Positions 2,937 through 27,940 of a stretch of DNA of 64,000 bases are shown piece after piece. Below the pieces are notes generated by a model, which saw only the letters and a program-made list of their open reading frames with translations, made no database searches and was not told where the DNA came from. Every line of letters starts with the position of its first letter. Position 1 is the first letter of the stretch. A program made the position numbers and the translations under genes. The stretch lies in the NCBI GenBank assembly GCA_007135125.1, contig SLJK01000032.1, positions 16,237 to 80,236 of the forward strand. The letters run 5' to 3'. This DNA is from Syntrophomonadaceae bacterium (GTDB lineage: Bacteria; Bacillota; Dethiobacteria; DTU022; UBA8154).

Positions 2937-4370
2937 GTGTATAAAGACAACCGAGAATTTATGAAAGCGCTGGAGGCTGCAGGAGAACTGGTTACCATTG
3001 ATCAGGAAGTGGACTGGGACATGGAAGCGGGAGCAATAGTCCGCAAGGTTTGTGAAGACAAGGCACCTTCTCCCCTGATGAACAAAATCAAGGATTACCC
3101 CGGGCATCGATACCTGGGAGCGCCCCTGGCAAACTACCGCAAGTTGGCCATAGCTATGGGCATGGATCCGGATAGCAGTATCCCTGAGATTGCTGCAGAA
3201 TACTTGGAGCGCACCAACAGAGAACCGGTAAAACCTGTTATTGTTGAAAAAGATCAGGCACCTTGCAAGGAAAATATTATTACAGGCGATGATGTTGACC
3301 TTTTTACTCTGCCTGCTCCCATGGTCCATGAAGGTGATGGGGGACGGTACCTGGCAACCTGGCATTTTGTGGTAACCAAGGACCCTGACAAGCAGGAAGT
3401 TAACTGGGGAATGTACAGGCAGATGGTTTATAATTCCAAAATAATGACCGGACCGCTATTTCCTTTTTCCGGTGGTGGCCAGGTTTTCCACGGGAAATAT
3501 GTTCCCCGCGGTGAGGCTATGCCTTTTGCTACTGTGATTGGCCCGGATCCCCTTGGTGCTATTGCGGGTTCCGCCCCCACAGCTATCCCTGAGCCGGAAT
3601 ATACGGGGCAGCTTTTGGGGAAACCTGTGGAACTGGTGAAATGTGAAACAGTGGATTTGGAAGTCCCCGCCAATGCCGAAATAATTATTGAGGGGTATAT
3701 TCTTCCTGATGTATCGATAGAGGAGGGACCTTTCGGTGAGTACACTGGTTACCGTACTTCTCCGAGAGATACTCGCACGGTTTACCAGGTAACTGCCATC
3801 ACCCATAGAAATGATCCCATAACCACCATTTCCAATATGGGTGTTCCCACCGACGAGGGGCAGCTTTTGCGTTCTTTCACCCTGGGTTTGGAAATGGATA
3901 GGATGCTTCGCAACCAGGGTATCCCTATAACGGGAGTGTATATGCTGCCCGAATCGACTCACCACCTGGTTGTAGTTGGAGTTAAGCCGCTTTATACTAA
4001 TATAGCGGCACAAATTGCTCAAACTGTTTTTGGTAGTTCGCTGGGTATGTGGTTCCATATGGTTGTGGTAGTAGATGATAAAACAGATATTTATAATTTC
4101 AACGAAGTTTTGCATGCCCTAAGTACTCGCTGTCATCCTGTAAACGGCATACATGTCTGGCAGGGAGTGGGGACACCCCTCTATCCTTTCCTCAGCGCGG
4201 CGGAAAGGAAGAAATCAGTAGGCCCTAAAGTTCTCTTTGACTGCACCTTCCCGTTGGACTGGGATCCATTAAGCGAGGTGCCCAGACTTGTTTCTTTCAA
4301 GACAGTTTATCCCCAGGAGATCCAGGACAAGGTTCTGGCCAACTGGGAAAAATATGGCTTTACAAAATAG
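2937..4370 (+). CDS. UbiD-family prFMN-dependent (de)carboxylase (phenylphosphate carboxylase alpha/beta-like)
   Basis: The ORF track starts at GTG 2928. GTG 2937 has better AGGAGG spacing and gives MYKDNREF…, typical of a UbiD N-terminus. About 478 aa, with UbiD-like blocks throughout (…GPFGEYTGYR…, …WHFVVTKD…). Confidence 0.8.
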   Translation: MYKDNREFMKALEAAGELVTIDQEVDWDMEAGAIVRKVCEDKAPSPLMNKIKDYPGHRYLGAPLANYRKLAIAMGMDPDSSIPEIAAEYLERTNREPVKPVIVEKDQAPCKENIITGDDVDLFTLPAPMVHEGDGGRYLATWHFVVTKDPDKQEVNWGMYRQMVYNSKIMTGPLFPFSGGGQVFHGKYVPRGEAMPFATVIGPDPLGAIAGSAPTAIPEPEYTGQLLGKPVELVKCETVDLEVPANAEIIIEGYILPDVSIEEGPFGEYTGYRTSPRDTRTVYQVTAITHRNDPITTISNMGVPTDEGQLLRSFTLGLEMDRMLRNQGIPITGVYMLPESTHHLVVVGVKPLYTNIAAQIAQTVFGSSLGMWFHMVVVVDDKTDIYNFNEVLHALSTRCHPVNGIHVWQGVGTPLYPFLSAAERKKSVGPKVLFDCTFPLDWDPLSEVPRLVSFKTVYPQEIQDKVLANWEKYGFTK

Positions 4371-4386
4371 TAAAGGAGGAAATATA

Positions 4387-4641
4387 ATGGCTCGCTATGA
4401 TGTTTTTATAAACAGCTTGGCAGATCTGCCTGAAGGAAAAGAGGTTCAACTTGCGATAAGGGATCTTTCGCCGGGAATTCATAAGTACTGCTATCAGGAT
4501 GTACTGGCCATGGTCTCTCCTGACCCCGAGAAATATGATGAAAAAATGCAGGTTCGTTATGGCAGGGGACAGGCACATCCACAACTATTCTCTATCAAAA
4601 TACAGGAGAATGTTGAAAGGATTCCGGAGCGATGGAGGTAG
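4387..4641 (+). CDS. small (85 aa) protein translationally coupled between two UbiD paralogs (candidate PpcC-like small subunit)
   Basis: The ORF track lists 4288-4641. The plausible start is ATG 4387, directly after the upstream stop and with RBS AAAGGAGGAAATATA. MARYDVFINSLADLPEGKEVQLAIRDL… The 3' end overlaps the next UbiD start by 10 nt. Confidence 0.5.
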   Translation: MARYDVFINSLADLPEGKEVQLAIRDLSPGIHKYCYQDVLAMVSPDPEKYDEKMQVRYGRGQAHPQLFSIKIQENVERIPERWR

Positions 4642-5999
4642 ACTTAAGAAGTTTTCTTCATACTTTAAAAGAAAATAAAGAACTTATAGAACTTGAGGAC
4701 GAAGTCAGCCCCCGTTACGAAGTTACTTCCATTTTCAAAGAGGTGCTGGGGGAGCAGGGAGGTCCGGCTGTCCTTTTGCACAATGTGAGCGGTTATCCCG
4801 GCCGGAAGTTGGCAGGGAACCTTTTGGCCAGCCGTGAAAAGATGGCTTTAGCCCTGGGGTGCCAGGTGGAAGATTTAAGGGACGCATATCTGAAAGGGCG
4901 CTTTGCTTCCCTGGAGCCTGTGCAGGTGCAAGGTAGTGCTCCGGCACAGGAAGAAACAGTGGCAGAAGAGATAGATCTTCTATCTCTTCTGCCCGCACCT
5001 ATTTTTCATCAGGGTGATGCCGGGCCTTACCTTACAGCAGGTGTGCTTTTGGCTAAAGATCCCGATACAGGGGTAATGAACAGTGGAATTCACAGGCTGC
5101 AACTAAAAGGCAAAACTAGGCTGGGGGTGTTTCTGGCTACACCGCCTCTGTCAAATTATTTCAAGAGATCTGAAGAAGAAGGTAAACCCCTGCAGGTGGC
5201 AGTAGCATTAGGTCTGCATCCAGCCGAGCTTTTAGCAGCAGCCGTTTCTCTTAAGGAGGGCATGAAAAGCAAGATTCATCTGGCCGGAGGTTTAGCCGGA
5301 CGAGGAATGCCGCTTACTCCAGCCAAAACCCTGGATATGATGGTGCCAGCCACGGCGGAAATTATCCTAGAGGGACATTTACTTCCTGGTATAAGAGAAG
5401 CAGAAGGACCTTTTGGAGAAAGTACCGGCTATTATTTTGAGGCGGAAAGCCCCATTTTGGAGATACAAGCGGTTACGTTTCGTAAGGATCCCATTCTTAC
5501 CGTTATTCCGCCCTGGGGAATCGAAACGGATATTATACTTGCAGTTTTTAGCGGAGCTGAACTGTGGAAGGAGCTGCACAGGGTTATTCCTGAAGTAAGA
5601 GATGTTACTTTTTTACCGGGCTCCCTCACTTTTCAGGGAGTTATCCAGGTGAGTGAATCACTTTCCAGGGAAAAAATAAGGCAACTGATTTACCTGGCTT
5701 TAAATTTGGATCGACGCCTGAAACACGTGATAGTGGTCGACGATGATGTGGATATTCATAGTTCTAGAGAGGTTTTATGGGCACTGGGGACTCGTTTTCA
5801 GGGCTCTACTGACCTCATTTGCCTCCCGGGCCTGGAAGGGTATGTTATTGATCCTTCCACCCAGGAAGGAGAAACAGCGAAACTTGGTTTTGATGCAACT
5901 GCACGACCGGAGGGGCCATATAGCAAGCGTTACCGGAGTCTTTCCCTTCCCCGGGAATCAATTTTAAAGGCAAAAAACATTCTGGAACAGAGGAGATGA
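4632..5999 (+). CDS. UbiD-family (de)carboxylase paralog
   Basis: 455 aa (MEVDLRSFLHTLKENKELIELEDEV…GPFGESTGYY…). Second complete UbiD paralog. Start overlaps the small ORF and the stop overlaps ubiX (ATGA). Confidence 0.8.
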   Translation: MEVDLRSFLHTLKENKELIELEDEVSPRYEVTSIFKEVLGEQGGPAVLLHNVSGYPGRKLAGNLLASREKMALALGCQVEDLRDAYLKGRFASLEPVQVQGSAPAQEETVAEEIDLLSLLPAPIFHQGDAGPYLTAGVLLAKDPDTGVMNSGIHRLQLKGKTRLGVFLATPPLSNYFKRSEEEGKPLQVAVALGLHPAELLAAAVSLKEGMKSKIHLAGGLAGRGMPLTPAKTLDMMVPATAEIILEGHLLPGIREAEGPFGESTGYYFEAESPILEIQAVTFRKDPILTVIPPWGIETDIILAVFSGAELWKELHRVIPEVRDVTFLPGSLTFQGVIQVSESLSREKIRQLIYLALNLDRRLKHVIVVDDDVDIHSSREVLWALGTRFQGSTDLICLPGLEGYVIDPSTQEGETAKLGFDATARPEGPYSKRYRSLSLPRESILKAKNILEQRR

Positions 6000-6610
6000 T
6001 GCCCGTGCGAATCGTAGTGGGTATATCCGGTGCGACTGGAGTGATCTACGGGATTAGGATCATGGAAATACTCAAGGAGCTTGAAGTGGAAACTCACCTG
6101 ATAATATCCGATGCAGGTAAGAAAAACATTGAGCTGGAAACCGGGTACGAAGTGGCCAGAGTTGAAGCGCTGGCGACAGAAGTTCATGATATATGTAACG
6201 TAGGTGCTTCTATTTCCAGTGGTTCTTTTAAAACCCATGGTATGATTGTTGCTCCCTGTTCTATCAAGAGCCTTTCTGCTATTGCTAATTCTTTCAATAA
6301 TAACCTGCTTATCAGGTCGGCAGATGTTACTTTAAAGGAAAAAAGAAAGCTGGTTATGATAGTAAGGGAGACGCCCTTGCACGTAGGTCATTTGCGGCTT
6401 ATGACAATGGTGGCGGAGGCAGGGGGAGTGCTGCTACCTCCAATGCCTGCTTTTTATAATCACCCTGAAACATTAGAAGATATGATTGACCAGACGGCGG
6501 GAAAAGCTCTGGACCAGTTCGGCATTGAGCATAACCTCTTTAACCGTTGGTACGGTACCGATTCGGCCAGAAGAAGAAACAAAGAAGCTTTAAAAAGGGG
6601 TTTGTTGTAA
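5996..6610 (+). CDS. ubiX: flavin prenyltransferase UbiX (prFMN synthase)
   Basis: 204 aa. IVVGISGATGVIYGIRIMEIL…MIVAPCSIKSLSAIANSF…RETPL is a classic UbiX/Pad1 flavoprotein. The start may be ATG 5999. Confidence 0.85.
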   Translation: MMPVRIVVGISGATGVIYGIRIMEILKELEVETHLIISDAGKKNIELETGYEVARVEALATEVHDICNVGASISSGSFKTHGMIVAPCSIKSLSAIANSFNNNLLIRSADVTLKEKRKLVMIVRETPLHVGHLRLMTMVAEAGGVLLPPMPAFYNHPETLEDMIDQTAGKALDQFGIEHNLFNRWYGTDSARRRNKEALKRGLL

Positions 6611-6614
6611 ACTC

Positions 6615-7139
6615 ATGGAAGAAATTATCGAAAGCAAGGAAATCTTTAACGGAAAAATTATCCGTGTCCGCCTGGATAAAGTAAGACTTCCCGATGGAAA
6701 GGAAAGTCAAAGGGAAATTGTGCAGCTCGGCGGCGCTGTAGCTATGGTGCCAGTTGATGAGAAAGGAAATATTTATTTCGTTAGACAATATAGAAAGCCC
6801 ATTGAAAAAGTTTTACTTGAAATACCGGCAGGGCGACTTGAACCGCCAGAAATTCCTGAGGATTGTGCTCGCCGGGAATTAGCAGAAGAGATCGGTTTGT
6901 GGCCGGATAAAATTAATAAACTTTCAGATTTCTTTTCCTCGCCTGGTTTTTCCAACGAGAATATCACTATATTTTTGGCCAGGAATTTGAGGAAGAGCAA
7001 AATGCGTCCGGATGAAGGAGAGTTTATTGATGTGGTATTATATCCTTTCTCTAAAGCATTAGCCATGATTAGTAGTGGAGAGATTCAGGACGGTAAAACA
7101 ATTGCGGGACTCCTGTTGGCCCATTATTTTCTGCAGTAG
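6615..7139 (+). CDS. NUDIX hydrolase (ADP-ribose pyrophosphatase NudF-like)
   Basis: 174 aa. Nudix box GRLEPPEIPEDCARRELAEEIGL (Gx5Ex7REUxEExGU). Confidence 0.8.
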   Translation: MEEIIESKEIFNGKIIRVRLDKVRLPDGKESQREIVQLGGAVAMVPVDEKGNIYFVRQYRKPIEKVLLEIPAGRLEPPEIPEDCARRELAEEIGLWPDKINKLSDFFSSPGFSNENITIFLARNLRKSKMRPDEGEFIDVVLYPFSKALAMISSGEIQDGKTIAGLLLAHYFLQ

Positions 7140-8600: not shown

Positions 8601-9083
8601 GTGCCAGTGATTATTTTGGAGAGTCACAGTCAGGAACAGACCAGGAAGATAGGGCGTTTTCTGGGTGAGCGCATTCTTTCCGGAACCGTAATTACCTTGA
8701 ATGGCGAGCTGGGTGCAGGCAAAACTGTGCTGGCCAAAGGGGTAGGAGAAGGCCTGGGCATTAAGAAAGCCATTACCAGCCCTTCTTTTGTATTGATGAA
8801 TATCTATCATGGACGATTTAATTTCTATCATTTTGATTTTTACCGCCTGGAGGAAGAAGAAGAATTATGGGAATTAGGGCTGGAAGAATATTTTTATGAT
8901 GAAGGAGTAGTACTGGTGGAGTGGGCAGACAAATTTATAGACAGTCTTCCTGCTACCAGGCTTGATATTTGTATTGAAAAATCTAAAGATAACCTTGAAA
9001 ACGGCCGTATTCTTTATTTTATACCTCAGGGAAAATTTGATTTAACTGTATTGGAGGAGTTGGAAAGCCAGTGTTTTTGTTAG
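8601..9083 (+). CDS. tsaE: tRNA t6A37 biosynthesis ATPase TsaE (YjeE)
   Basis: Walker A GELGAGKTVLAKG, then …FYHFDFYRL…W.LGLEEY…. GTG start (8601 or 8607). Confidence 0.8.
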   Translation: MPVIILESHSQEQTRKIGRFLGERILSGTVITLNGELGAGKTVLAKGVGEGLGIKKAITSPSFVLMNIYHGRFNFYHFDFYRLEEEEELWELGLEEYFYDEGVVLVEWADKFIDSLPATRLDICIEKSKDNLENGRILYFIPQGKFDLTVLEELESQCFC

Positions 9084-9778
9084 CCATTGATACAACTACA
9101 CCAGTTTGCTCTGTGGCTTTAGGAGACGAAGATAAGCTTTGGGGAGAATATACCCTAAATTTAAAAAACACCCATTCTCAAAAGCTAATGCCTCTTCTTG
9201 TGTCTCTCTTTCAGGAAACAAGAATAGATAAAGATATGTTACAGGGCATTGCAGTGACTACCGGCCCGGGGTCTTTTACCGGTATTCGTATAGGAATGGC
9301 CACCGCAATGGGGCTTGCACAGGGATGGGGAAAACCGCTTGTAAGTGTTATGACTCTGGATGCCCTGGCAGAAGTTGGAGCTTACTATCCCATACTTATC
9401 TGTCCGCTGCTTGATGCCCGAAAAGGCCAGGTATATACTGCTCTGTATCGAGGAGAAAAAGGAAGGGCTCGCATGCTTGAACCTGCTTCAGCCTGTTTCG
9501 CCGACGATCTTTTAGTTCATCTGGAATCATATAAAGAAAAGATTCTTTTTCCGGGCGATCCCCTGGAAAGGACCAGGGAAAAATTTAAAGCTTCCCTGGG
9601 AGAAAAGTACCTGGAGTTTCCTTTATTATTATTGTCCAACAGGGCTTCCCTGGTTCTTAAAAAAGGTATACAAAACTGGAAGGAATTGGGCCCGGAATCT
9701 CCATACGCTTTAAGGCCATATTACCTTCGGCTTCCTGAAGCAGAAAGACGTTTCAAGGAGCAAAAGAAAGGGGAGTAG
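9071..9778 (+). CDS. tsaB: tRNA t6A37 biosynthesis protein TsaB (YeaZ)
   Basis: MFLLAIDTTTPVCSVALG…GPGSFTGIRIG… is an inactive Kae1/YgjD-family paralog. Overlaps the tsaE end by 13 nt. Confidence 0.85.
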   Translation: MFLLAIDTTTPVCSVALGDEDKLWGEYTLNLKNTHSQKLMPLLVSLFQETRIDKDMLQGIAVTTGPGSFTGIRIGMATAMGLAQGWGKPLVSVMTLDALAEVGAYYPILICPLLDARKGQVYTALYRGEKGRARMLEPASACFADDLLVHLESYKEKILFPGDPLERTREKFKASLGEKYLEFPLLLLSNRASLVLKKGIQNWKELGPESPYALRPYYLRLPEAERRFKEQKKGE

Positions 9779-9784
9779 CAGTAG

Positions 9785-10228
9785 TTGCAGTTGGTGATCT
9801 GCCAAATGGAAGAGGATGATTTGGAACAGGTTATTCATATTGAGAAGGAGTCTTTCCGATGTCCATGGTCGCTAAGTTCTTTTCAGAGTGAAATGGGCGT
9901 GAACAAGTACTCCTATTATATTGTAGCCAAAAAGAAGGCAGATAATCTGGTAGTCGGATATACAGGAACGTGGATACTTTTTGAAGAAGCTCATATCACA
10001 ACCCTGGCTGTGCATCCAGATTTCCGCCAGAAAGGAATAGCAGCTATTTTGCTGGAGCATTTGTTAAGTAAATTTAGAAACGTGGGGGTCACCTATATAT
10101 TTTTGGAAGTGAGGAGCTCCAATTATTCCGCCCAAAAGCTTTATGAAAAGTATAGTTTTGCCATAGCCGGGAAACGAAAAAGGTACTATGATGATGAGGA
10201 CGCCATTATAATGGTAAAGCATTTTTAG
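9785..10228 (+). CDS. rimI: ribosomal-protein-alanine N-acetyltransferase RimI (GNAT)
   Basis: 147 aa GNAT (…AVHPDFRQKGIAAILLEHL…) in the canonical tsaB-rimI-tsaD position. TTG start with RBS AAAGGGGAG. Confidence 0.8.
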   Translation: MQLVICQMEEDDLEQVIHIEKESFRCPWSLSSFQSEMGVNKYSYYIVAKKKADNLVVGYTGTWILFEEAHITTLAVHPDFRQKGIAAILLEHLLSKFRNVGVTYIFLEVRSSNYSAQKLYEKYSFAIAGKRKRYYDDEDAIIMVKHF

Positions 10229-10244
10229 GAAGAGGTGCTGTTAA

Positions 10245-11267
10245 ATGTTAAGCAAAACTGTTATCCTGGGCCTGGAAACAAGTTGCGATGACACAGCTGC
10301 AGCGGTAGTTGCTAACGGGCGGAATATTTTAAGTAACGTGGTCTCGTCCCAGGACAGTTTGCATCATCGTTTTGGAGGAGTGGTGCCGGAGGTAGCCTCA
10401 AGGCGCCACCTGGAAATTATTAACCCTCTTATAGACGAAGCCATGAGTAAAGCAGGTATTAGCCTCCAGGAAATAGATGGAATAGCGGTATCTTATGGAC
10501 CAGGCCTGGTTGGTTCTCTTCTGGTAGGGGTATCAATAGCTAAAGCTCTATCTTATGCCCTGGATATTCCATTGATACCTGTTAATCACCTGGAAGGACA
10601 TATTTATGCAAATTTTTTAACCGGGTCCATCATTACTTTTCCTCTTGTCTGCCTGGTAGTTTCCGGGGGGCATACTTCACTTCTTTATGTGGAAGGTCAT
10701 GGCAAAATTGAAGTACTTGGAAAGACACGGGATGATGCAGCAGGAGAAGTCTTCGATAAAATTGCCAGGGCTCTGGACCTGGGATTTCCCGGAGGACCAG
10801 TTATCGAGCGTCACGCCCAGCAGGGGGATTCGTCTGTTCTTTCTTTTCCGCGGGCCTTGATGGGAGAAGATGGAAAGATGGATTTTAGTTTCAGCGGAGT
10901 TAAGACTGCTGTATTGAATTACATTCGCATGGAGCAAGAGAAGGGTTCCAGGACAGACATTTATGCCCTCTCCGCTGCTTTTCAGGATGCAGTGGTGGAG
11001 GTGCTGGTGGATAAATCTTTTATGGCTGCCCGGCAAAAGGAGGCCAAACAATTCTTGCTGGCCGGCGGGGTTGCTGCCAACGGTGAGCTTAGAAGAAGAC
11101 TGCGCGTTAAACTGGAAGCGGAAGGGATAGAGGTTGTTGCACCTCCTGTGGAGCTGTGTACCGATAATGGAGCTATGGTTGCTGCTGCCGGGTATTATTA
11201 CCTGAGAAGAGGTATTCGGGCCAATTGGGATTTAAACGCAGTGCCCAGCCTGGAAGTTGGCCAATAA
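10245..11267 (+). CDS. tsaD: tRNA N6-adenosine threonylcarbamoyltransferase TsaD (Gcp/Kae1/YgjD)
   Basis: MLSKTVILGLETSCDDTAAAVV…NHLEGHIYANFL…VSGGHTS…GVAANGELR is the universal Kae1/TsaD signature. Confidence 0.9.
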   Translation: MLSKTVILGLETSCDDTAAAVVANGRNILSNVVSSQDSLHHRFGGVVPEVASRRHLEIINPLIDEAMSKAGISLQEIDGIAVSYGPGLVGSLLVGVSIAKALSYALDIPLIPVNHLEGHIYANFLTGSIITFPLVCLVVSGGHTSLLYVEGHGKIEVLGKTRDDAAGEVFDKIARALDLGFPGGPVIERHAQQGDSSVLSFPRALMGEDGKMDFSFSGVKTAVLNYIRMEQEKGSRTDIYALSAAFQDAVVEVLVDKSFMAARQKEAKQFLLAGGVAANGELRRRLRVKLEAEGIEVVAPPVELCTDNGAMVAAAGYYYLRRGIRANWDLNAVPSLEVGQ

Positions 11268-19554: not shown

Positions 19555-19756
19555 AATTAAGCTCTCCTTATATTCCAACTAAAATTAGCAAACAAACATG
19601 GAAGATTTACTCATCTGTTCTATTCAATTTGCGTTGTTCAAAATCCTGCCACGCTCTAGTATCCTTCCATAGTATTACAGGAAACATTCTCATTATTAAA
19701 ATGTTTAATAACCTTTAATAATAAGGACATTTTGGGAAAATATTCTTTTTTCCAGG

Positions 19757-19785
19757 TTGACTTATGGGCTCCCTTTGGGTAAAAT
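19757..19785 (+). promoter_or_regulatory. sigma-A-type promoter upstream of cysK
   Basis: TTGACT, a 17-nt spacer, then TAAAAT. Confidence 0.35.
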
Positions 19786-19850
19786 AAACTTATTCTAACT
19801 AATTCTATTAAATTAATAGGAATTACAAAGACAACTACAGGAAGCGGGGT

Positions 19851-20783
19851 ATGAAAATGAATATTGCTCGCAACGTTTCACAGTTGGTAGGTGGTACACC
19901 TCTGGTATATTTGAATCGTGTAACAGAAGAGGGTGCAGCAGCGGTAGCGGCCAAGCTAGAATCTTTTAATCCCGGCGGGAGCGTAAAGGACCGTATCGGT
20001 TTAAGCATGATTGAAGCTGCGGAGCGGGACGGCTTGATTAAGAAAGATACGATAATCCTGGAACCAACCAGCGGCAATACAGGCATTGCCCTGGCCATGC
20101 TTGCGGCGGCTAAAGGTTACCACTGTGTGTTAGTTATGCCCGATACCATGAGCCAGGAGCGCAGAAGCCTTCTTAAAGCCCTGGGAGCGGAACTGGTTTT
20201 AACACCTGGAGCGGAGGGTATGAAAGGGGCTATTAAAAAAACTGAAGAGATGGCGGCTGCTGATGACAGGCACTTTATTCCGCAGCAGTTTTCCAATCCT
20301 GCTAACCCGGAGGTACACCGCCAAACCACAGCAGAAGAGATCTGGAAAGATACTGATGGAACTGTTGATATTTTTGTTGCTGGAGTAGGTACAGGGGGCA
20401 CAGTAACTGGTGTGGGAGAGGTACTTAAGAAACGCAAGCCTGATTTGAAGGTCGTTGCCGTGGAGCCGGCAGAATCTCCGGTCTTGGGGGGAGGCAAACC
20501 CGGACCTCATCGTATTCAGGGCATCGGAGCGGGTTTTATTCCGGAAGTGCTTGACATTTCCGTGATCGACGAGGTGATACAGGTGCCTGATAAACTTGCT
20601 CTCGAAACTTCCCGGAGACTTCACGGGGAAGAAGGGCTGCTGGTTGGTATTTCATCAGGTGCCGCTTGTCAAGCAGCCTTGCAGGTTGTTGCCCGTCCTG
20701 AGAACAAGGGTAAGCTGGTAGTTGTAGTTTTTCCGGACCTGGCCGAAAGGTATATCTCTACGGCTCTTTTTAGTGTGGATTAA
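19851..20783 (+). CDS. cysK: cysteine synthase A (O-acetylserine sulfhydrylase)
   Basis: …[15 protein letters not shown]…, …[12 protein letters not shown]…, GTGGT is the PLP fold-II CysK signature. Confidence 0.9.
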
Positions 20784-20829
20784 AAATAGTGAACCAACAT
20801 TTTATAATCGGTTTTATGAAGGATAGAAG

Positions 20830-21879
20830 GTGATGATTGTGGTACCTCTGGAGGAGGGCAGCTGGGAACGCTATTCGCGGCAGATACTTTTTAGCCCTAT
20901 TGGTAGGGAAGGGCAAAAAAGTTTTCTTAAGAGCAGGGTGGCTATTATAGGTTTAGGAGCACTGGGCACTGTTTCTGCAGGCAGCCTTGCCAGGGCGGGA
21001 ATTGGATTCTTAAAGCTGGTCGATAGAGATTTTGTAGAAGAATCCAATTTGCAGAGACAGATGCTTTTTGATGAAGAAGATGCCAGGAATGCTTTGCCCA
21101 AAGCGCTAGCGGCTCAGCAAAAGATAAGTAAAATAAATTCTGAAATAAGCTGCCAGGCCCTGATAGAAGATGTTAATTATGGAAATGTGGAAGGAATAAT
21201 TAAAGATGTTGATCTTGTTCTGGATGCCACAGATAACTTCGAAATCAGGTATTTGATAAATGAAGCGTGTGTGAAGCATAATATTCCCTGGATTTATGGA
21301 GCTTGCCTGGCCAGTTCGGGTTATACTTTTACTATATTACCGGAAGAGACAGCCTGTCTGGCCTGTTTTATTGGCAAAGTACCTCCTCCACCCGGCTCAG
21401 GTTTAACTTGCGATACAGCAGGTATTATTAGCCCTGCTGTTAATATTGTAGCTTCCTTGCAGGTTGCCGAGGCCATGAAATTGCTCAGTGGGAATAAGGA
21501 GGCCCTGCAAAAGAACGCCCAATTTTTCGACCTGTGGGAGAATCATTTTATGGAATTGGAAATACAAAGGAACGAAGAATGTGCTGTATGTGCGAAAAGG
21601 GAGTTTCACCTGCTCTCCGGCAAGAACCAACAGGGCACTACTTACCTTTGTGGACGTGATGCTGTGCAGCTACTCCCTTCAGCGCCTCAAAAGCTTTCTT
21701 TGAAAACCATGGAAAAGAAATTGGCACCTTTAGGCGACGTATTTGCCACCGATTTTTTATTGAAATTTAACGATGGAAAGCATGAGATGGTTATTTTTCC
21801 TGACGGGCGTGCTATGATTAAAGGCACCTCAGATCTTAAATTGGCGCGCACCCTTTATGCACGTTATTTGGGCAACTGA
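20830..21879 (+). CDS. ThiF/MoeB/HesA-family E1-like adenylyltransferase with extra ~100-aa C-terminal domain
   Basis: YSRQILF…VAIIGLGALGT…LVDRDFVEESNLQRQ and the CxxC…CxxC pair (ACLAC, CAVC). C-terminal domain of unknown type (…DFLLKFNDGKHEMVIFPDGRAMIKG…). Confidence 0.7.
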   Translation: MMIVVPLEEGSWERYSRQILFSPIGREGQKSFLKSRVAIIGLGALGTVSAGSLARAGIGFLKLVDRDFVEESNLQRQMLFDEEDARNALPKALAAQQKISKINSEISCQALIEDVNYGNVEGIIKDVDLVLDATDNFEIRYLINEACVKHNIPWIYGACLASSGYTFTILPEETACLACFIGKVPPPPGSGLTCDTAGIISPAVNIVASLQVAEAMKLLSGNKEALQKNAQFFDLWENHFMELEIQRNEECAVCAKREFHLLSGKNQQGTTYLCGRDAVQLLPSAPQKLSLKTMEKKLAPLGDVFATDFLLKFNDGKHEMVIFPDGRAMIKGTSDLKLARTLYARYLGN

Positions 21880-21925
21880 TATCTAGTGTAAATTATTTCG
21901 GTTGCCTGTTTTGGAGGGAAGAGTA

Positions 21926-23071
21926 GTGCTTTATCTTGACAATGCAGCGACTTCTTATCCCAAACCTGAAGAAGTTTACCGAGCAATGGATTATTTTTTG
22001 CGTAATCAGGCAGCTAATCCCGGGCGTGCAGCTTTCAGGATGGCGGTAGAGGCTGAAAGGCTTATAACCGATACCAGGTTACTGCTAAAGGATTTTTTTA
22101 ACCTTCCCAGGCCCGAACAGGTAGTATTCACCCTGAATTGTACTGAAGCATTAAATATAGTTCTTAAAGGGCTTCTTAACCCTGGGGCCCATGTTATAAC
22201 CAGCGGTTTAGAGCATAATTCGGTTAGCAGGCCTCTTAACAGGCTCAAAGTAGATGGAGTAGACTTTTCCATTGTTAATGCTGCTCCTGACGGATTAATT
22301 AACCCGGAAGAAATTGCCAAATTAATTCGTCACGACACACAGCTTATTGTGCTTACACATGCTTCCAATGTACTGGGAACTATTGAACCTGTGAAAGAGA
22401 TTGGAGAAATTGCTGCCGAAAAGGGAGTATTGTTTCTCCTCGATGCGGCTCAAACTGCAGGAGCGATTCCTCTAGATATGCAGGATTTGAAGATAAGTAT
22501 TCTGGCTTGTTCCGGACATAAAGGGTTAATGGGGCCTCCGGGAACCGGTGTTCTGGCTATTAGGGATGATGATCTAGAGATTGCTTCATTAAAGGAGGGT
22601 GGGACGGGTAGTTTTTCCGAAGAACCCTTTCAACCTTCATATTACCCTGACCGTTTGGAAGCGGGAACTCCTAATACAGTGGGAATAGCGGGTCTAAAGG
22701 CCGGTGTAGAGTTTATAAAAAAGGAAGGGTTAGAAAGCATAAGAGAACACGAAGTAAATTTATTGAAGCTGCTCCTGGAAGAGCTTTCCAATATTCCTAA
22801 TGTTACTCTTTACGGCACAACAGAGGCAGATAAACGGACAGGGTTAGTATCTTTTAATATTGAAGGTTGGGACCCACAGGATGCAGCGGCGGTGCTGGAG
22901 ACACGGTTTGAGGTAGCCTGCAGAGCGGGATTGCATTGTGCCCCGTGGGCTCATCGTTTCAACGAGACTTATCCTGACGGGGCTATACGTTTTGGTATAA
23001 GTTATTTTAATACTGAAAGCGAAATTAGAACAGCACTGGATGCTGTGGGCACGTTAGCAAAGGCTTTTTAA
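21926..23071 (+). CDS. cysteine desulfurase (class V aminotransferase, NifS/IscS-like)
   Basis: VLYLDNAATSYPKP…, …SGHKGLMGPPGTG… (Lys-PLP), …GLHCAPWAH… GTG 21926 with GGAGGG RBS preferred over the track start 21902. Confidence 0.8.
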   Translation: MLYLDNAATSYPKPEEVYRAMDYFLRNQAANPGRAAFRMAVEAERLITDTRLLLKDFFNLPRPEQVVFTLNCTEALNIVLKGLLNPGAHVITSGLEHNSVSRPLNRLKVDGVDFSIVNAAPDGLINPEEIAKLIRHDTQLIVLTHASNVLGTIEPVKEIGEIAAEKGVLFLLDAAQTAGAIPLDMQDLKISILACSGHKGLMGPPGTGVLAIRDDDLEIASLKEGGTGSFSEEPFQPSYYPDRLEAGTPNTVGIAGLKAGVEFIKKEGLESIREHEVNLLKLLLEELSNIPNVTLYGTTEADKRTGLVSFNIEGWDPQDAAAVLETRFEVACRAGLHCAPWAHRFNETYPDGAIRFGISYFNTESEIRTALDAVGTLAKAF

Positions 23072-23100
23072 CAATACTATTAGAAAGGGGAAAATTAATT

Positions 23101-23550
23101 ATGCAGCTTTCTACAAAGGCACGTTATGCGACAAGGGCCATGATTGAGCTGGCCCTGGAGTTTGGAACAAATCCTCTTCAATTAAAGGAAATTGCCAGGA
23201 GGCAGGATATTTCTGAAAAGTACCTGGAACAAGTGCTTTTACCTTTGCGGACCAGAGGATTTATTTACACTCTTAAGGGAAGCAAAGGGGGTTATTGTTT
23301 GGCGGTTACTCCCCAGGACGTCACTCTCTATGATATTATTCAGACGGTAGAAGGTTCTATTGCGCCAGTTCACTGTGTTGAAAACAAAGAAATATGTGCA
23401 AGGATTGACAAATGTGCCATGCGAAACTACTGGAGCAGGTTAAAGGATAAAATCACTGAAGAGCTTCAGAAAACAACTCTTGCCGATTTGGCACAAGAGC
23501 AAAAAGAAAAAGAAGGGGAAGTAGGAGAAAAACTAGATTACCAGATTTAA
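23101..23550 (+). CDS. Rrf2-family transcriptional regulator with 3-Cys motif (IscR-like)
   Basis: MQLSTKARYATRAMIELAL… (Rrf2 wHTH) and C-x6-C-x5-C (HCVENKEICARIDKC), consistent with an Fe-S-ligating Rrf2. Confidence 0.8.
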   Translation: MQLSTKARYATRAMIELALEFGTNPLQLKEIARRQDISEKYLEQVLLPLRTRGFIYTLKGSKGGYCLAVTPQDVTLYDIIQTVEGSIAPVHCVENKEICARIDKCAMRNYWSRLKDKITEELQKTTLADLAQEQKEKEGEVGEKLDYQI

Positions 23551-23562
23551 ATTGTGGTAATG

Positions 23563-23608
23563 AAAAGGCTTTTACCTGCCAAATTGTTTTTAGCAGTAAA
23601 AGCCTTTT
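23563..23608. terminator. bidirectional terminator between convergent Rrf2 and dctP genes
   Basis: Perfect 13-bp stem AAAAGGCTTTTAC / GTAAAAGCCTTTT with a 20-nt loop. U-tracts are available on both strands. Confidence 0.45.
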
Positions 23609-23679
23609 TAAGTCAGCTGTTTATTATTTGGAAATTACTGGACTAACTAAGCAGTTTCAAAGCGCGTTTATTAACAGCT

Positions 23680-24765
23680 TTATCCTTCATAATCGCCGTA
23701 TTCTTCTGAGAATCTTGCGTCCAGTTCACGTACGGTGTTAATAATTTCTTCGCCGTGCAGCCCCCTTGCTTCGGCGTCTCCGATCCAGTTTTCAACAATG
23801 GGTTCGATGCGTCCTCTCCATCGTTCTTCTTCGCCGGGGTCGAGTTCAAAAACTTCAATTCCATGTTCTTCGATACCAAACTCCAGTCCTCGTTCAGTAT
23901 GCTCTGTTCTCAGCTTACCATATTCGTACGCATATTCTTTGCTCATTTCCTCGATGGTTTCTTGAATATCCGTGGGAAGTGCATTCCAGGTCTCCAGATT
24001 CATCACTTTCATGAAAACGATGTTGTAGAGAAAGGGAGTTTTGGTGACATAGTCCAGGACTTCAGCCAACCTGAATCCTTTAAGAGTGTCAGTGGGAGCA
24101 AGAATGCCATCCAGTAGTGCAGAATCAAGTGCCAGATATGATTCGGACATGGGCATTGATACCGGTGTTACGCCAAGTGCCTGCATGGGTGCAACCGTTC
24201 CTCCTACAACCCTCATTTCTTTTTCTTCAATAGCTTCCAGGGTGTTGCCGGGCTCCTCCCTGGTCATAATGTCACCGGGACCTGTAGCCCAGAAAAAAAG
24301 CACCTTAACATCGTCATATTCGTCTATAAGCTCTTTCTCCTTCAATGTCTTATAACCCTCGTTCACAGTGAGGGAGGCCACCAGGGCGTTATCATTTTGA
24401 TAGCCGGGCAGCTCAAAGGCTTCGGTTACCGGGAATATTCCCGGTGTATAGGCCGGGCATGTTGTCCCGATATCTGCCGAGCCATCTACAACACCTTCAT
24501 AGATTTCAGTAGCTCCCAGGAGAGCTTCACCGGGCTGTATGGTTATTTTTACTTTTCCGTCGGTTCGCTCTTCCAGGTCCCTTGCCCATACCTCGTGTCC
24601 TTCAGTTACCTGGAAATCTGTCCCTGGCCAAAAAGTGGCAAATTGCAACTCAATTACTTCATCCGGATCGGTTGCCGGTGGCTCATCAGCAGCACAACCA
24701 GTGAAAACAGGCAAAGTTGACATTATTGCTGTGACTAGTATAAAACCAAGAAGCTTGCTTTTCAT
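23680..24765 (-). CDS. TRAP transporter substrate-binding protein (DctP family), lipoprotein
   Basis: Signal peptide plus lipobox (…VFTGC). The DctP-like fold is highly similar (~60% by eye) to the paralog at 26801-27940. Confidence 0.75.
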   Translation of the reverse strand: MKSKLLGFILVTAIMSTLPVFTGCAADEPPATDPDEVIELQFATFWPGTDFQVTEGHEVWARDLEERTDGKVKITIQPGEALLGATEIYEGVVDGSADIGTTCPAYTPGIFPVTEAFELPGYQNDNALVASLTVNEGYKTLKEKELIDEYDDVKVLFFWATGPGDIMTREEPGNTLEAIEEKEMRVVGGTVAPMQALGVTPVSMPMSESYLALDSALLDGILAPTDTLKGFRLAEVLDYVTKTPFLYNIVFMKVMNLETWNALPTDIQETIEEMSKEYAYEYGKLRTEHTERGLEFGIEEHGIEVFELDPGEEERWRGRIEPIVENWIGDAEARGLHGEEIINTVRELDARFSEEYGDYEG

Positions 24766-24831
24766 CCACTATACCCTCCTTGCAAGATCTTCAGCTAGGA
24801 TTGCTGAAAATACAATGTTTTTATGATTATT

Positions 24832-26139
24832 TTATATCCTTGCCATTTCAGGTAGAAAGAGTGCAATTTGCGGAAAAGCAAACAATAGTGCAATACACAC
24901 TACAATGGCAATAAGGAACGGCCAGGTACCTTTAAAAATCTCCATGACATCTATATCTCTGGCTACCCCCGCCACTACATATACATTAGCTCCTACCGGG
25001 GGTGTAATAACTCCCATGCCAAGTGCTAAAACGACAATAACCCCAAACCAAATAGGGTCATACCCCAGGGTAACAGCAACAGGGTAAAAGATAGGTGTGG
25101 TCATTAGAATAAGGGCCAGGGCATCGATGAAAAGCCCTAAAATAAGGTAAACCACTAAAACAAGAATCAGAACAAAAGTGGGAGAAAAGGGAGCTTCTAC
25201 AGCCATAGTAGCAACAAAGGCAGGGAGCCCGGTAATACCCAGGAAGCGTCCGTAAATAAAGGCAGCTCCCGTGAGAAAAAGGACCATGGCCGATAAGCGT
25301 ACCGCGTCAGCCGTTGAGCTGATAAAACCTTGCCAGGATAGTGTCCTTCGGACCAGCGATACTATAAGAGTTGCAAAAGCGCCTATACCTCCGGCTTCGG
25401 TAGGAGTAAAATATCCTAAAAATAGCCCACCCATTACGGCGATAAAAATTACAACAACTTCCATTCCTCCTGAAAAAAGTGCCTTAAGTTTATCAATTGA
25501 GGAAATTTTAGGTCCGGCAGGGGCGGCGGAAGGATCACGCAAAGCTATAAAATAAACCGTTAGCATGAATAAGAACATTAACAGGAGACCGGGGAAGATA
25601 CCGGCCAGAAAAAGCTGGGAGATGGAGGTCCCCGTTGAAACACCGTAAAGGATAAAAATGACGCTGGGAGGGATCATTACTCCAAGAATGGCTGCTGCGG
25701 CAATGGTGGCGGTAGAGAGAGTGCGTCTGTACTCAAACTTGGTCATTTCCGGGAGGGCCACGGCGGTCATGGTAGCAGCGGTAGCCGTGGTAGAGCCGCA
25801 GATAGCACCAAAAGCTGTACAGGCTGCTATGGTGGCCATGGACAAACCGGCCGGAAAGCCACCGATTACTTTATAAGTGGCATCATATATCCTACTGCTG
25901 AGCCCGGAGTAAAAAGCTATAAAACCCATCCACATAAAGAGAGGAACTACAATAAGCGAATAAGAAGCAAAATTGGAGTACATGGTCTGGGCCGAGATAG
26001 ACAGGGCAGCTGTAATATTAGTAAGGTAGGCATAGCCAGCCATTCCAATTACCAGCATTACAAAGGCGATTGGCAGGCGGAGAAAAAGCAGCACGAATAG
26101 AATTATTATGGAAATAAATGCTACATACAATGGATCCAT
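24832..26139 (-). CDS. TRAP transporter large permease DctM
   Basis: 435 aa, about 12 TM, with a typical DctM composition. Confidence 0.85.
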   Translation of the reverse strand: MDPLYVAFISIIILFVLLFLRLPIAFVMLVIGMAGYAYLTNITAALSISAQTMYSNFASYSLIVVPLFMWMGFIAFYSGLSSRIYDATYKVIGGFPAGLSMATIAACTAFGAICGSTTATAATMTAVALPEMTKFEYRRTLSTATIAAAAILGVMIPPSVIFILYGVSTGTSISQLFLAGIFPGLLLMFLFMLTVYFIALRDPSAAPAGPKISSIDKLKALFSGGMEVVVIFIAVMGGLFLGYFTPTEAGGIGAFATLIVSLVRRTLSWQGFISSTADAVRLSAMVLFLTGAAFIYGRFLGITGLPAFVATMAVEAPFSPTFVLILVLVVYLILGLFIDALALILMTTPIFYPVAVTLGYDPIWFGVIVVLALGMGVITPPVGANVYVVAGVARDIDVMEIFKGTWPFLIAIVVCIALLFAFPQIALFLPEMARI

Positions 26140-26633
26140 TATTGCTCACTCCCCTTTACAGCTAAATTAATTGCTTTAAGAAAATCTCTAAGCAGAACGA
26201 TGGCGAGAATAATAAAACCGATACCGACCAGAAAAATAATGGGGTAAATAGGAATCTGCAGATGACCGGTGTAATAACCTCTTTCCATCATCCTCAAGGC
26301 ATAAATAATTGTCCGCCAGGCTAATAAAGAGGAGAAAAAAACGGCTAAGAGCATGGTAAAGGTATCTATAATGCCCTGTACACGTAAAGGAAACTTCCTC
26401 ACCAGTACGCTCACGAAGATATGCCCTTTCATATGCTGGCAGTAAGCTACAGCCATACCGATGAGGACAGCTCCCAAAATTTCTGTCATTTCCACGGTGC
26501 CAGGAATGGGCCTCCAAAATGCGCGTATGATTACGTTGCCTGAAATGAGAAGCATTACCGCTACCAGTGCAATTTGGCTTATATGAGATATTTGCCAGGA
26601 AACAGTGCCCACAAATTTGTCCAAAAACCTCAT
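26139..26633 (-). CDS. TRAP transporter small permease DctQ
   Basis: 164 aa, 4 TM, immediately upstream of and overlapping dctM. Confidence 0.7.
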   Translation of the reverse strand: MRFLDKFVGTVSWQISHISQIALVAVMLLISGNVIIRAFWRPIPGTVEMTEILGAVLIGMAVAYCQHMKGHIFVSVLVRKFPLRVQGIIDTFTMLLAVFFSSLLAWRTIIYALRMMERGYYTGHLQIPIYPIIFLVGIGFIILAIVLLRDFLKAINLAVKGSEQ

Positions 26634-26800
26634 TTATTTCTGCCTCCTTGTAACATATGTATGGACAGCAAGAGTGTTTATAGAGAAGGCACCGCTGTCT
26701 CATGTCTTAAACTAAGACAGCAGATGCCTTCTCTTCAAGCTCTGGTTAAACAAGGAGCAGCAATTATTAATATATCAATTGCACTCTTGTTAGTTTAAAA

Positions 26801-27940
26801 TCAGTTAAAATAGTCGCCATACTCAGCAGAGTATTTTTCCTGGAGGTCCTTAACTGTTTGCAGGATTTCCTCGCCGGGCAGGCCTTGATCATTAAGACCC
26901 TCCACGTAGCCGTCCTGGACTGGCTCGATCGCTTCCATCCATCTTTCTACTTCATTAGCGTCGAGTTCGATTATTTCATGACCGAATTCATCCACGGCAA
27001 ATTCCTGACCAAACAATGTATGCTCGGTTCTTAGCACTCCATATTCATAGACGTACTTTTCGTTCACTTCGTCAAAAATCTGTTGTACTTCGGCGGGGAA
27101 AGAGTTCCATGTGTCCTGGTTCATGACTTTTATAAACGTAATGTTGTAGAGGAAAGGTGTCTTGGTGATGTAGTTGGTTACCTCGGCCAGCATAAATCCT
27201 TGAAGGGTATCGGTAGGGGCAAGGATTGCCTCCACGATTCCCTGGTCCAGGGCCAGGTATGATTCGGACATGGGCATGGTAGTGGGGGTTCCTCCCAGCG
27301 CCTCTATCACGGGGACCGAACCGCCGGCTGCCCTTGTTTCCATGCCCTGGTAATCGTCCAGCGTGTGGACAGGAGACTGCGAAATGATATCCCCGGGTCC
27401 CGTGCTCCAGAAATGCATGACCTTTACATCTTCATATTCCTGCGTAACCAGGTCATAAGTTTCAAAAGCATCCTGAATAACCATGGAGGAAACCAGGGCG
27501 TTGTCGTTAGGGAAGCCAGGGAGCTCAAAGGTTTCTGTGACAGGGAATACCCCCGGAGTGTAAGAAGGGCAGGTAGAGCCCAGATCGGCAGCTCCGTCGG
27601 CTACACCTTCATATATTTCCGTTGCTCCCAGCAAAGCGCCCGCGGGGTGCCAGTTGAAGTCGATGGTGTGGTTGGTTTCCGATTCTACACGATCTTTTAT
27701 CTCCTGTGCCCAGACTTGGTGTCCATCTGCAACCTGAAAGTCTTCACCAGGCCAGAAAGTAGCAAATTCCATGGTAAAATGTTCTCCTTCTGCATCAGGA
27801 TCTGCAGGCTCGGCAGGTTCATCCGGCTCATCTACGTCAGGATCCGGAGCGGGTGCAGGTTCATCAGGAGCACAACCCACAAATGCAAACATGGATACCA
27901 TCGCTATGGCTAATAACAGAATAAACAACTTTCTTTTCAT
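26801..27940 (-). CDS. TRAP transporter substrate-binding protein (DctP family) paralog, lipoprotein with P/D/E-rich linker
   Basis: Lipobox …FVGC, then APDEPAPAPDPDVDEPDEPAEPADPDAEGE linker, then a DctP fold. Confidence 0.75.
   Translation of the reverse strand: MKRKLFILLLAIAMVSMFAFVGCAPDEPAPAPDPDVDEPDEPAEPADPDAEGEHFTMEFATFWPGEDFQVADGHQVWAQEIKDRVESETNHTIDFNWHPAGALLGATEIYEGVADGAADLGSTCPSYTPGVFPVTETFELPGFPNDNALVSSMVIQDAFETYDLVTQEYEDVKVMHFWSTGPGDIISQSPVHTLDDYQGMETRAAGGSVPVIEALGGTPTTMPMSESYLALDQGIVEAILAPTDTLQGFMLAEVTNYITKTPFLYNITFIKVMNQDTWNSFPAEVQQIFDEVNEKYVYEYGVLRTEHTLFGQEFAVDEFGHEIIELDANEVERWMEAIEPVQDGYVEGLNDQGLPGEEILQTVKDLQEKYSAEYGDYFN

Follow-up and report, generated by a model that had tools for sequence, protein, structure and literature searches.

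The stretch of DNA analysed here, a 64,000-nucleotide part of contig SLJK01000032.1 from a Syntrophomonadaceae bacterium which we refer to as the window, carries a four-gene operon encoding the O-acetylserine sulfhydrylase CysK, a ThiF/MoeB-type E1 adenylyltransferase, a cysteine desulfurase of the TIGR01977 family and a regulator of the Rrf2 family. We think it reasonably probable that this operon is a cysteine-regulated unit which mobilises the sulfur of cysteine onto ubiquitin-like carrier proteins whose genes lie elsewhere in the genome. Modules of this kind are ordinary, and the only odd feature of this one is the lack of a nearby gene for a sulfur-carrier protein. A first-pass annotation of this DNA had recognised four co-directional genes for CysK, a ThiF-like E1, a desulfurase and a three-cysteine Rrf2 protein; the open reading frames (ORFs) are at those positions and searches with family profiles confirmed all four assignments. 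Nothing in the window is categorically new: the "novel domain" and "TcdA-like" descriptions given to the E1 in that annotation are corrected below, and the locus is placed in a known framework.

The E1 and its C-terminal domain

The E1 gene (20830–21879, + strand, 349 amino acids), whose start is placed one to three codons later by gene callers on other records, matches the Pfam ThiF profile (PF00899) over residues 15–252 and profile positions 1–237 of 238, with 241.4 bits against a cut-off of 28.1 (E = 9.5e-72). Its GxGxxG motif (GLGALG, residues 41–46) is invariant, and the zinc cysteine pairs C176/C179 and C251/C254, together with the crossover-loop cysteine C194 (in TCDTAG), are kept in 91–92 of the 92 family sequences. 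These cysteines align with the matching region of E. coli ThiF, where the counterpart of C194 is Cys184. In the PDB it was matched best by ThiF of E. coli (E = 5e-42) and by MoeB (E = 1e-37), and more weakly by Uba4 (E = 1e-28) and TcdA (E = 2e-8), and among the family models the protein scored 227 bits with ThiF, 204 bits with MoeB and 144.6 bits with the MoeZ model NF005902, which has a cut-off of 647. Judged from its sequence, the E1 is a canonical, catalytically complete carrier-type ThiF/MoeB adenylyltransferase.

The first-pass annotation had suggested that the E1 might be a TcdA-type enzyme, by analogy with the B. subtilis gene order yrvM...cymR-yrvO-mnmA. The protein would then be a TcdA/CsdL-type dehydratase acting on tRNA, converting N6-threonylcarbamoyladenosine (t6A) to its cyclic form (ct6A), fused to a new domain and accompanied by a CsdA- or YrvO-like desulfurase. 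The E. coli TcdA/CsdL and CsdA-CsdE system does resemble the window in having a member of the E1 superfamily with a group-II desulfurase gene nearby, and the E1 matches the TcdA model NF011696 with E = 9e-13, a weak likeness that is expected of any member of the superfamily. The window also includes a t6A operon, tsaE-tsaB-rimI-tsaD (approximately 8601–11267), about 9–10 kb upstream of the cysK operon, and nothing ties it to the E1. However, the TcdA model, whose cut-off is 304 bits, gives the E1 48.5 bits, and only residues 25–155, in the Rossmann core, are matched. TcdA lacks both the zinc cysteines and the crossover-loop cysteine (PMC12596934), and we rejected a TcdA identity on the model scores and because TcdA is partly defined by the missing zinc cysteines, which the window E1 and its family invariantly have. 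The desulfurase likewise scored about 150 bits with the CsdA models generally (cut-offs 494–607), and it belongs to TIGR01977, with 94 bits against a cut-off of 304 for the IscS-subfamily model NF002806; mnmA is in no gene table of the window. The B. subtilis analogy is thus not supported either. No CsdE or SufE gene is found in the gene tables, which cover most of the window (no separate search was aimed at CsdE or SufE), and orthologues of the E1 adjoin ThiS and MoaD genes. We regard the TcdA proposal as effectively refuted.

Past the Pfam ThiF match the E1 extends for about 95 residues and ends in ...YLGN. This extension had been described as neither rhodanese-like nor GG-terminated, and that description holds: neither the whole E1 nor the tail matched PF00581 even with E allowed up to 10, there is no CxxGxR loop, and a rhodanese domain is present on none of the best 120 of 6,705 matches from a search for E1 homologues. 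The tail alone gave no significant match in Pfam (best IMP2_C, E = 0.14) and no sequence match in the PDB (best an S-layer protein, E = 0.22). It had also been called novel and uncharacterised, and here the earlier description has to be revised. The NCBIfam model NF009123 (PRK12475, MoeB/ThiF family adenylyltransferase, curated cut-off 510 bits) covers the tail to its end, residues 13–348 of the E1 aligning with profile positions 3–338 of 338 at 406 bits, a score that makes the window protein a divergent relative of this family and not a member by the NCBI rule. Nearly all of the best 120 homologues are proteins of approximately 340 amino acids with 96–99% query coverage and so share the tail; among them are proteins with ThiF or MoeB annotations from Brevibacillus, Effusibacillus, Acidobacteria and Planctomycetota.

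The full-length E1 was modelled by AlphaFold2 with a mean predicted local distance difference test (pLDDT) of 91.2 and a predicted template-modelling score of 0.89, and the tail alone with a pLDDT of 83. In these models the tail (residues ~265–349; 21622–21876, + strand) is a beta-beta-alpha-beta4-alpha domain. Taking as the mark of the TBP-like (helix-grip) superfamily a beta-alpha-beta4-alpha fold that superposes on a repeat of the TATA-binding protein (TBP), the predicted structure of the tail belongs to it. The Foldseek ranking agrees with a TBP-like fold, with E-values that are not significant, and further structural matches were the AP2 appendage platform, phosphoglucomutase/phosphomannomutase chains, and the OGG and AlkA glycosylases. 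Since the sequence searches with the tail alone were empty, its identity comes from structure prediction only. Such a domain on bacterial and archaeal ThiF/MoeB enzymes has already been described, in 2010 (PMC2948915) and in 2013 (PMC3597702). Brindefalk et al. (2013) listed a ThiF-MoeZ-MoeB group of TBP-domain proteins and noted that experimental information was lacking, and Makarova and Koonin (2010) proposed that TBP-like GG proteins, often fused to E1 enzymes, are functional analogues of ubiquitin-like proteins; fusions of a ubiquitin-like protein, an E1 and a TBP-like domain also exist (PMC2948915). The TBP-like tail is not novel and is present on thousands of such enzymes, and what had been taken for a fusion to a new domain is an E1 with a standard, described one.

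The conserved residues of the TBP-like domain cluster in loops. The sequence L273-C274-G275-R276 lies in the first (beta1-beta2) hairpin, with C274 (codon 21649–21651) and G275 invariant in 92/92 sequences, and F323-x-D325-G-R327, G332-T-x-D335 and A339-R340 are conserved too. The linker and the first hairpin (residues 261–280) have a pLDDT of 72–73, the lowest in the C-terminal half of the model, as compared with more than 90 elsewhere, and this fits a mobile element. By analogy with MoeZ, MOCS3 and Uba4, which have related E1 cores and presumably share a plan in which a C-terminal domain with a conserved cysteine is tethered to the adenylation domain, Cys274 is a probable built-in persulfide relay of the E1, although the tail that would carry it is TBP-like and not rhodanese.

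Association with a cysteine desulfurase and with cysteine and methionine genes

The gene following the E1 (21902–23071, + strand, 389 amino acids) encodes a group-II cysteine desulfurase of the class-V aminotransferase type. It was assigned at family level to TIGR01977 (the EF2568/SclA family) with 470.7 bits against a cut-off of 377; NCBI classes this "cysteine desulfurase family protein" model as a hypothetical equivalog. The pyridoxal phosphate (PLP) lysine is K207, in SGHK, and the group-II catalytic cysteine is Cys346, in RAGLHCA, and the best PDB match was the cysteine desulfurase 5b7s (E = 2e-59). Scores with the models of other desulfurases were all under their cut-offs (SufS 260.8 bits against 475, NifS 161.6 against 531, IscS 134.5 against 643, CsdA 154.7 against 494), as was that with the SclA model NF040779 (362.8 against 525). 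SclA of E. faecalis (EF2568) has been reported, in a preprint, to be a selenocysteine lyase that is competitively inhibited by cysteine. It shares with the window protein the TIGR01977 family and the group-II RxGxHCA motif, K202 and C341 of SclA being equivalent to K207 and C346; however, the SclA gene lies among selenium genes, whereas the gene in the window lies between the E1 and Rrf2 genes and near cysK. Because SclA is reported as a selenocysteine lyase, the substrate preference of the window desulfurase is not fixed by homology.

The first gene of the operon (19851–20783, + strand, 310 amino acids) encodes O-acetylserine sulfhydrylase A. The CysK protein was assigned at equivalog level to TIGR01139 (456.3 bits, cut-off 350.95) and matches Pfam PALP with E = 9.8e-75, and it scored 295.4 bits with the cysM model, under the cut-off of 394.2.

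We gathered 171 related loci and based the context statistics on the 102 that have at least 2 kb on both sides of the E1. All the loci gathered were scored by tblastn with the window proteins and with MetY, MetX, MetM-like, NIL and NifU proteins from related loci, together with a scan for GG-terminal carriers; scans of contigs with peptide patterns added only relatives that were at most 54% identical. Thiamin operons with ThiS accounted for 13/102 loci, as in Paenibacillus (L062, ThiO-ThiS-ThiG-E1, confirmed with Pfam), and molybdenum cofactor (Moco) operons with MoaD for 9/102, as in Bacillus cereus (L026, MoaA-...-E1-MoeA-MoaE-MoaD). A TIGR01977-type desulfurase was present within 4 kb of the E1 at 18/102 loci, the genes often abutting or overlapping. 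In this last context the genes found alongside were cysK (6 loci), metY (4), metX (3), a MetM-like threonine-synthase homologue (3) and NIL (3), and ThiS-family carriers ending in ...AIAGG or ...LVAGG were found at 3 loci. Neither a desulfurase nor any gene of cysteine or methionine synthesis was seen in any of the 13 ThiS-type or the 9 MoaD-type loci.

All loci in which the E1 is at least 57% identical to that of the window (L001–3 and L087–91) have a desulfurase of the same family, 61–73% identical, directly downstream. The pair is also found, at 45–54% desulfurase identity, in Omnitrophota, Phycisphaerae, Deltaproteobacteria and Anaerolineae, and the adjacency is kept at loci without Rrf2 (for example L089, L025, L027 and L126). 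The window order cysK-E1-desulfurase-Rrf2 recurs in L001, where the E1 is 69% identical, and the same genes are found rearranged as E1-desulfurase-cysK-Rrf2 in L091. Genes of methionine synthesis are added in L002 (metY-cysK-Rrf2-metX-E1-desulfurase) and L087 (metY-E1-desulfurase-metX-cysK); L101 has metY-MetM-like-NifU-ThiS-E1. In a neighbour-joining tree the window E1 falls in a clade made up of desulfurase-linked loci only, with the Bacillales ThiS and MoaD clades apart. When compared with the Firmicute ThiF/MoeB enzymes of NF009123 (Paenibacillus thiO-thiS-thiG-thiF; B. cereus moaA...moeB-moeA-moaE-moaD), the window E1 has the same full-length two-domain architecture at 45–51% identity, with the same invariant zinc cysteines, Cys194 and the LCGR, F.DGR and GT.D motifs of the TBP-like domain, whereas its clade is tied to the TIGR01977 desulfurase and to cysteine and methionine genes and not to ThiS/ThiG or MoaD/MoaE. 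With the E1-desulfurase pair kept across phyla, the compact sulfur-mobilisation module of the first-pass annotation is borne out in outline. Neighbourhoods of E1 and cysteine synthase genes were already catalogued in 2006 (PMC1779556).

An FdhA-like molybdopterin oxidoreductase is also encoded in the window (52137–54812), as two in-frame ORFs split by a TGA (53172–53174) in VDHCARL*HAPTVAGL, the classic selenocysteine site of formate dehydrogenases, with NuoE-like and NuoF-like genes just upstream. This split gene indicates that the host uses selenocysteine and a Mo/W-pterin cofactor. Because the window encodes such a molybdopterin-dependent enzyme, MoaD and a MoeB-type activity must exist in the genome, and the window E1 is a candidate for that activity too and may also serve MoaD.

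It could be asked whether the E1 is simply the Moco and thiamin activating enzyme of this genome, sharing a cysteine-responsive operon with cysK and a desulfurase as its sulfur supply and having no special link to cysteine or methionine synthesis. The operons around members of its family mark them as ThiF and MoeB, a molybdopterin enzyme is present in the host, and no homologue of metY, metX or MetM was found in the window. On the other hand, the E1-desulfurase pair of the relatives is repeatedly found in clusters with metY, metX, MetM-like genes or cysK and never with thiG, thiO, moaE or moeA, and the clade of the window E1 stands apart in the tree from those linked to ThiS and MoaD. We consider this housekeeping role unlikely, although it retains some weight, and favour a role in the transfer of cysteine sulfur to carriers.

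Some of the related loci have features of their own. In the Phycisphaerae, L028 and L156 have a MetM-like PALP protein, a ThiS-family carrier (...AIAGG), NIL and the E1, followed in L028 by the desulfurase. In this cluster (L028 7842–13367; L156 1955–5148) the MetM-like protein has 464 amino acids and an N-terminal zinc-ribbon-like NinF match, and with it are encoded a 91-amino-acid carrier, a 109-amino-acid NIL protein, the E1 with its TBP-like domain, DinB, an unknown gene product and the TIGR01977 desulfurase. The arrangement resembles a homocysteine pathway of the MetM/MetO type in which the E1-TBP protein and the desulfurase replace MoeZ. L004, L005 and L006, where the E1 is 54% identical (for example L005 5037–9053), have cysK, a 671-amino-acid Prismane-family protein (resembling hybrid-cluster protein or carbon monoxide dehydrogenase) and the E1, with no desulfurase; an ATP-binding cassette transporter and two Cys_Met_Meta_PP genes lie upstream. 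A TusA-DsrE fusion of 216 amino acids is encoded divergently and directly upstream of the orthologous operon in L001 (6191–6841, - strand), and L002 has separate TusA and DsrE genes, and an IscS-NifU pair, about 3 kb downstream.

Proposed sulfur transfer and the search for a carrier

In the scheme that we propose, CysK would make cysteine, which the group-II TIGR01977 desulfurase would convert to alanine, leaving a persulfide on Cys346. The E1, acting as a ThiF/MoeB-type enzyme, would adenylate the C-terminal glycine of a ThiS/MoaD-family carrier. The desulfurase would then hand its persulfide over to the E1, where the invariant Cys274 in the tethered TBP-like domain is the most plausible acceptor, and the persulfide sulfur would turn the acyl-adenylate of the carrier into a thiocarboxylate, with Cys194 resolving an acyl-disulfide as in E. 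coli ThiF. A relay at Cys274 would match the fused rhodanese of MoeZ, MOCS3 and Uba4, or ThiI/TusA in E. coli. Reconstituted thiazole synthesis of B. subtilis reportedly proceeded with ThiF, ThiS and a desulfurase of the NifS type, without ThiI, and this is consistent with a direct transfer from desulfurase to E1-TBP protein. The three-cysteine Rrf2 protein probably represses the operon at a palindrome in its promoter, responding to cysteine or to iron-sulfur (Fe-S) status.

As judged from the related loci, and by analogy with CysO/CysM, HcyS/MetY and MetO/MetM, the most likely main end use in this clade would be the formation of homocysteine or cysteine by way of carrier thiocarboxylates. Routes of this kind include CysO-CysM-Mec-MoeZ of M. 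tuberculosis and HcyS-HcyD-HcyF-MetY of W. succinogenes. These two, and MetM-MetO-Mec-MoeZ of Streptomyces, are like the window and its relatives in that an E1 is coupled to a PLP sulfhydrylase (CysK in the window, MetY or a MetM-like protein in relatives) and to sulfur derived from cysteine or sulfide. They differ from the window in that the latter has no carrier in cis, a TBP-like domain instead of rhodanese, CysK and not CysM, and a dedicated TIGR01977 desulfurase. The route to homocysteine through a carrier thiocarboxylate is established for MetM/MetO, according to the work cited for it in the GapMind preprint.

The first-pass annotation had remarked that neither a GG-terminated carrier nor IscU is encoded nearby, and our searches agree. 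A scan of the 64 kb for small ORFs ending in GG gave nothing credible. All stop-to-stop ORFs were then searched with a profile hidden Markov model and, by phmmer, with sets of first 24 and later 41 carriers taken from related loci, and no ThiS- or MoaD-like ORF was matched at E up to 10 in the window or within about 8 kb in the 11 closest loci. The Pfam gene tables of a further 17 kb of the contig (about 9 kb to the left and 8 kb to the right, making 81 kb in all) also list no ThiS-family gene. Homology searches of the window found no IscU, TusA, DsrE or NIL homologue, and the gene tables show no JAMM/Mec peptidase. In other genomes, orthologous E1s directly adjoin ThiS, MoaD or CysO-like carriers.

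This absence gives a place to the idea that in this clade the E1 is its own carrier, so that the TBP-like domain, through Cys274 and/or its C-terminal glycine, takes sulfur from the desulfurase straight to MetY- or CysK-type sulfhydrylases without any ThiS or MoaD. The result would be a bypass of transsulfuration that runs through a protein persulfide or thiocarboxylate. There is no carrier in cis in the window or in the 11 closest loci, and more distant E1-TBP loci have an adjoining one; the E1-desulfurase pair is embedded among metY, metX and cysK; in nearly all members of the E1 family the chain stops at the conserved Gly348 or at the next residue, with 5/92 ending in GG; and TBP-like GG proteins have been proposed as analogues of ubiquitin-like proteins (PMC2948915). 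However, the last residue is variable and mostly not glycine, and the C-terminal helix is modelled to within 2–3 residues of the end, leaving a tail too short for the E1 active site as compared with the 5–6-residue tails of ThiS and MoaD. ThiF and MoeB enzymes encoded beside ordinary ThiS and MoaD carry this domain too, with its invariant residues unchanged, and it is also present in the fusions with a ubiquitin-like protein, so there at least it is not a substitute for the carrier. In addition, carriers are very often encoded apart from their E1. Because of the ordinary ThiS/MoaD neighbours, the fusions and the 2–3-residue tail, we rate the self-carrier idea as improbable. If it were true, the TBP-like domain of bacterial E1s would have its first assigned function, and transsulfuration a new form.

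Several points weigh against the transfer of cysteine sulfur to a separate carrier as we propose it. The carrier is assumed and not seen, there being no gene for one in the 81 kb of contig inspected or near the 11 closest loci. The only characterised member of TIGR01977 that we found is E. faecalis SclA, reported as a selenocysteine lyase inhibited by cysteine, and the host itself uses selenocysteine, as judged from the selenoprotein FdhA-like gene in the window. A CysK making cysteine only for its desulfuration looks circular, unless the sulfur goes to homocysteine or to cofactors. The relay role of Cys274 is drawn from conservation and analogy alone; Makarova and Koonin (2010) and Brindefalk et al. 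(2013) present no experiments on the domain, and searches of the open-access literature turned up none on it or on pairs of an E1 with a TIGR01977 protein. Finally, the E1 scores below the curated cut-off of NF009123, and its clade is separate from the Bacillales ThiF/MoeB enzymes in the neighbour-joining tree.

Two widespread components without an experimentally known role meet in this operon, the TBP-like domain of many bacterial and archaeal ThiF/MoeB enzymes and the TIGR01977 family. The pairing of E1-TBP and TIGR01977 proteins in cysteine and methionine operons, with an invariant Cys-Gly-Arg, suggests a testable role for both, namely that the desulfurase loads a persulfide on the cysteine of the TBP-like domain, which then resolves the carrier acyl-adenylate to a thiocarboxylate. 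If true, such a relay would explain how ThiS, MoaD and the carriers of cysteine and methionine synthesis are sulfurated where ThiF/MoeB has no rhodanese domain.

Transcription, regulation and neighbouring genes

The genes cysK, E1, desulfurase and Rrf2 all share the + strand, with 46, 22 and 29 nucleotides between one gene and the next, and they form a single transcription unit bounded by a promoter with an operator-like palindrome and by a terminator. A candidate sigma-70-type promoter, TTGACT-17-TAAAAT (19757–19785, + strand), lies upstream of cysK. In a consensus scan it has 10/12 matches, which taken alone is weak evidence, and its -10 region GTAAAAT is also kept upstream of the orthologous operon L001. 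No riboswitch or T-box was found upstream of cysK, a scan of the whole window at the Rfam gathering thresholds having returned two tRNAs only. At the other end, between convergent genes, an intrinsic-terminator-like hairpin with a U-run (23561–23610, + strand) has a folding energy of -22.8 kcal/mol (z = -4.05, with 0/200 shuffled sequences folding as well). A simple terminator scan missed this hairpin, probably because its apical loop is interrupted.

Directly downstream of the -10 box is a 26-bp near-palindrome, TAATTCTATTAAATTAATAGGAATTA (19800–19825), which is matched on both strands. Its core, TAACTAA..CTATTA.AT..ATAG.A.TTA, is kept in the promoter of L001, where the flanks have diverged and the E1 is only 69% identical. 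We presume its half-site ATAGGAATT to be similar to the B. subtilis CymR box. The palindrome is a likely operator for the Rrf2 protein, binding being predicted from sequence, and the claim is a weak one because a strict regular-expression search of the other loci of the clade matched the window only and the conservation comes solely from the alignment with L001.

The Rrf2 gene (23101–23550, + strand, 149 amino acids) encodes a protein with three putative Fe-S ligand cysteines. It was assigned at superfamily level to TIGR00738 (134 bits, cut-off 73.3) and scored under the cut-offs of the subfamily models for CymR (124.5 bits against 195) and IscR (108.7 against 207.55). The best PDB matches were IscR of Thermincola potens (4cic, E = 9e-30) and then CymR of B. 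subtilis (2y75, E = 5.5e-27). Cys92, Cys99 and Cys105 (spaced Cys-x6-Cys-x5-Cys) align with the three cluster-ligand positions of the T. potens protein, which are serines in the crystallised 4cic, whereas B. subtilis CymR has no Fe-S cluster. The Rrf2 fold is common to all three. In the window the Rrf2 gene stands in one operon with cysK, in keeping with the partnership of CymR and CysK; it differs from the IscR and CymR genes in being the last gene of the operon and not the first, with no iscS-iscU after it. A CymR-CysK regulatory complex, as mentioned in PMC9338935 with reference to Tanous 2008, is a known precedent for the association of an Rrf2 gene with cysK.

The resemblance to IscR raises the alternative that the operon supplies Fe-S clusters or selenium, Rrf2 being IscR, the desulfurase feeding Fe-S assembly or acting as a selenocysteine lyase for selenophosphate, and the E1 a passenger. 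The three ligand cysteines, with T. potens IscR as the closest structure, would agree with this, as would SclA being the type member of TIGR01977 and a selenocysteine lyase, and the selenoprotein FdhA encoded in the window. However, no IscU, SufU, SufBCD scaffold or selD was found in the window gene tables or by homology searches, the E1-desulfurase adjacency is kept across phyla where Rrf2 is absent, and the desulfurase and Rrf2 proteins are both under the cut-offs of the respective models (363 against 525 bits for SclA, and likewise for IscR). We consider a role in Fe-S or selenium supply highly unlikely and prefer that of a cysteine-regulated unit for the sulfuration of carriers. Farther along this contig, about 8 kb to the right of where the window ends, begins a second gene of the Rrf2 family (L174 21247–21521), which could head a canonical iscR-iscS-iscU operon.

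The genes upstream of the operon are divergent and encode a threonine aldolase, a trypsin-like protease, and an extracytoplasmic function sigma factor then a Germane-domain protein. The cysK promoter is preceded by AT-rich nested inverted repeats (19682–19732) near the threonine-aldolase gene, the longest with arms of 19 nucleotides that are 79% complementary, which may be mere low-complexity AT-rich sequence. The genes downstream are convergent and encode the tripartite ATP-independent periplasmic (TRAP) transporter proteins DctP, DctM, DctQ and a second DctP. In this locus (23680–27940, - strand) the two paralogous DctP solute-binding genes flank dctM-dctQ, and both DctP proteins have lipoprotein-like N-termini followed by acidic linkers rich in Asp, Glu and Pro. 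Further to the left, two UbiD-family genes, a Phenyl_P_gamma gene, a UbiX-like flavoprotein gene and a NUDIX gene (approximately 2937–7139) look like a phenylphosphate-carboxylase-type system for the carboxylation or decarboxylation of aromatic compounds; a GAF/helix-turn-helix regulator is encoded at 913–2856, and the contig has a third UbiD gene immediately before the window starts.

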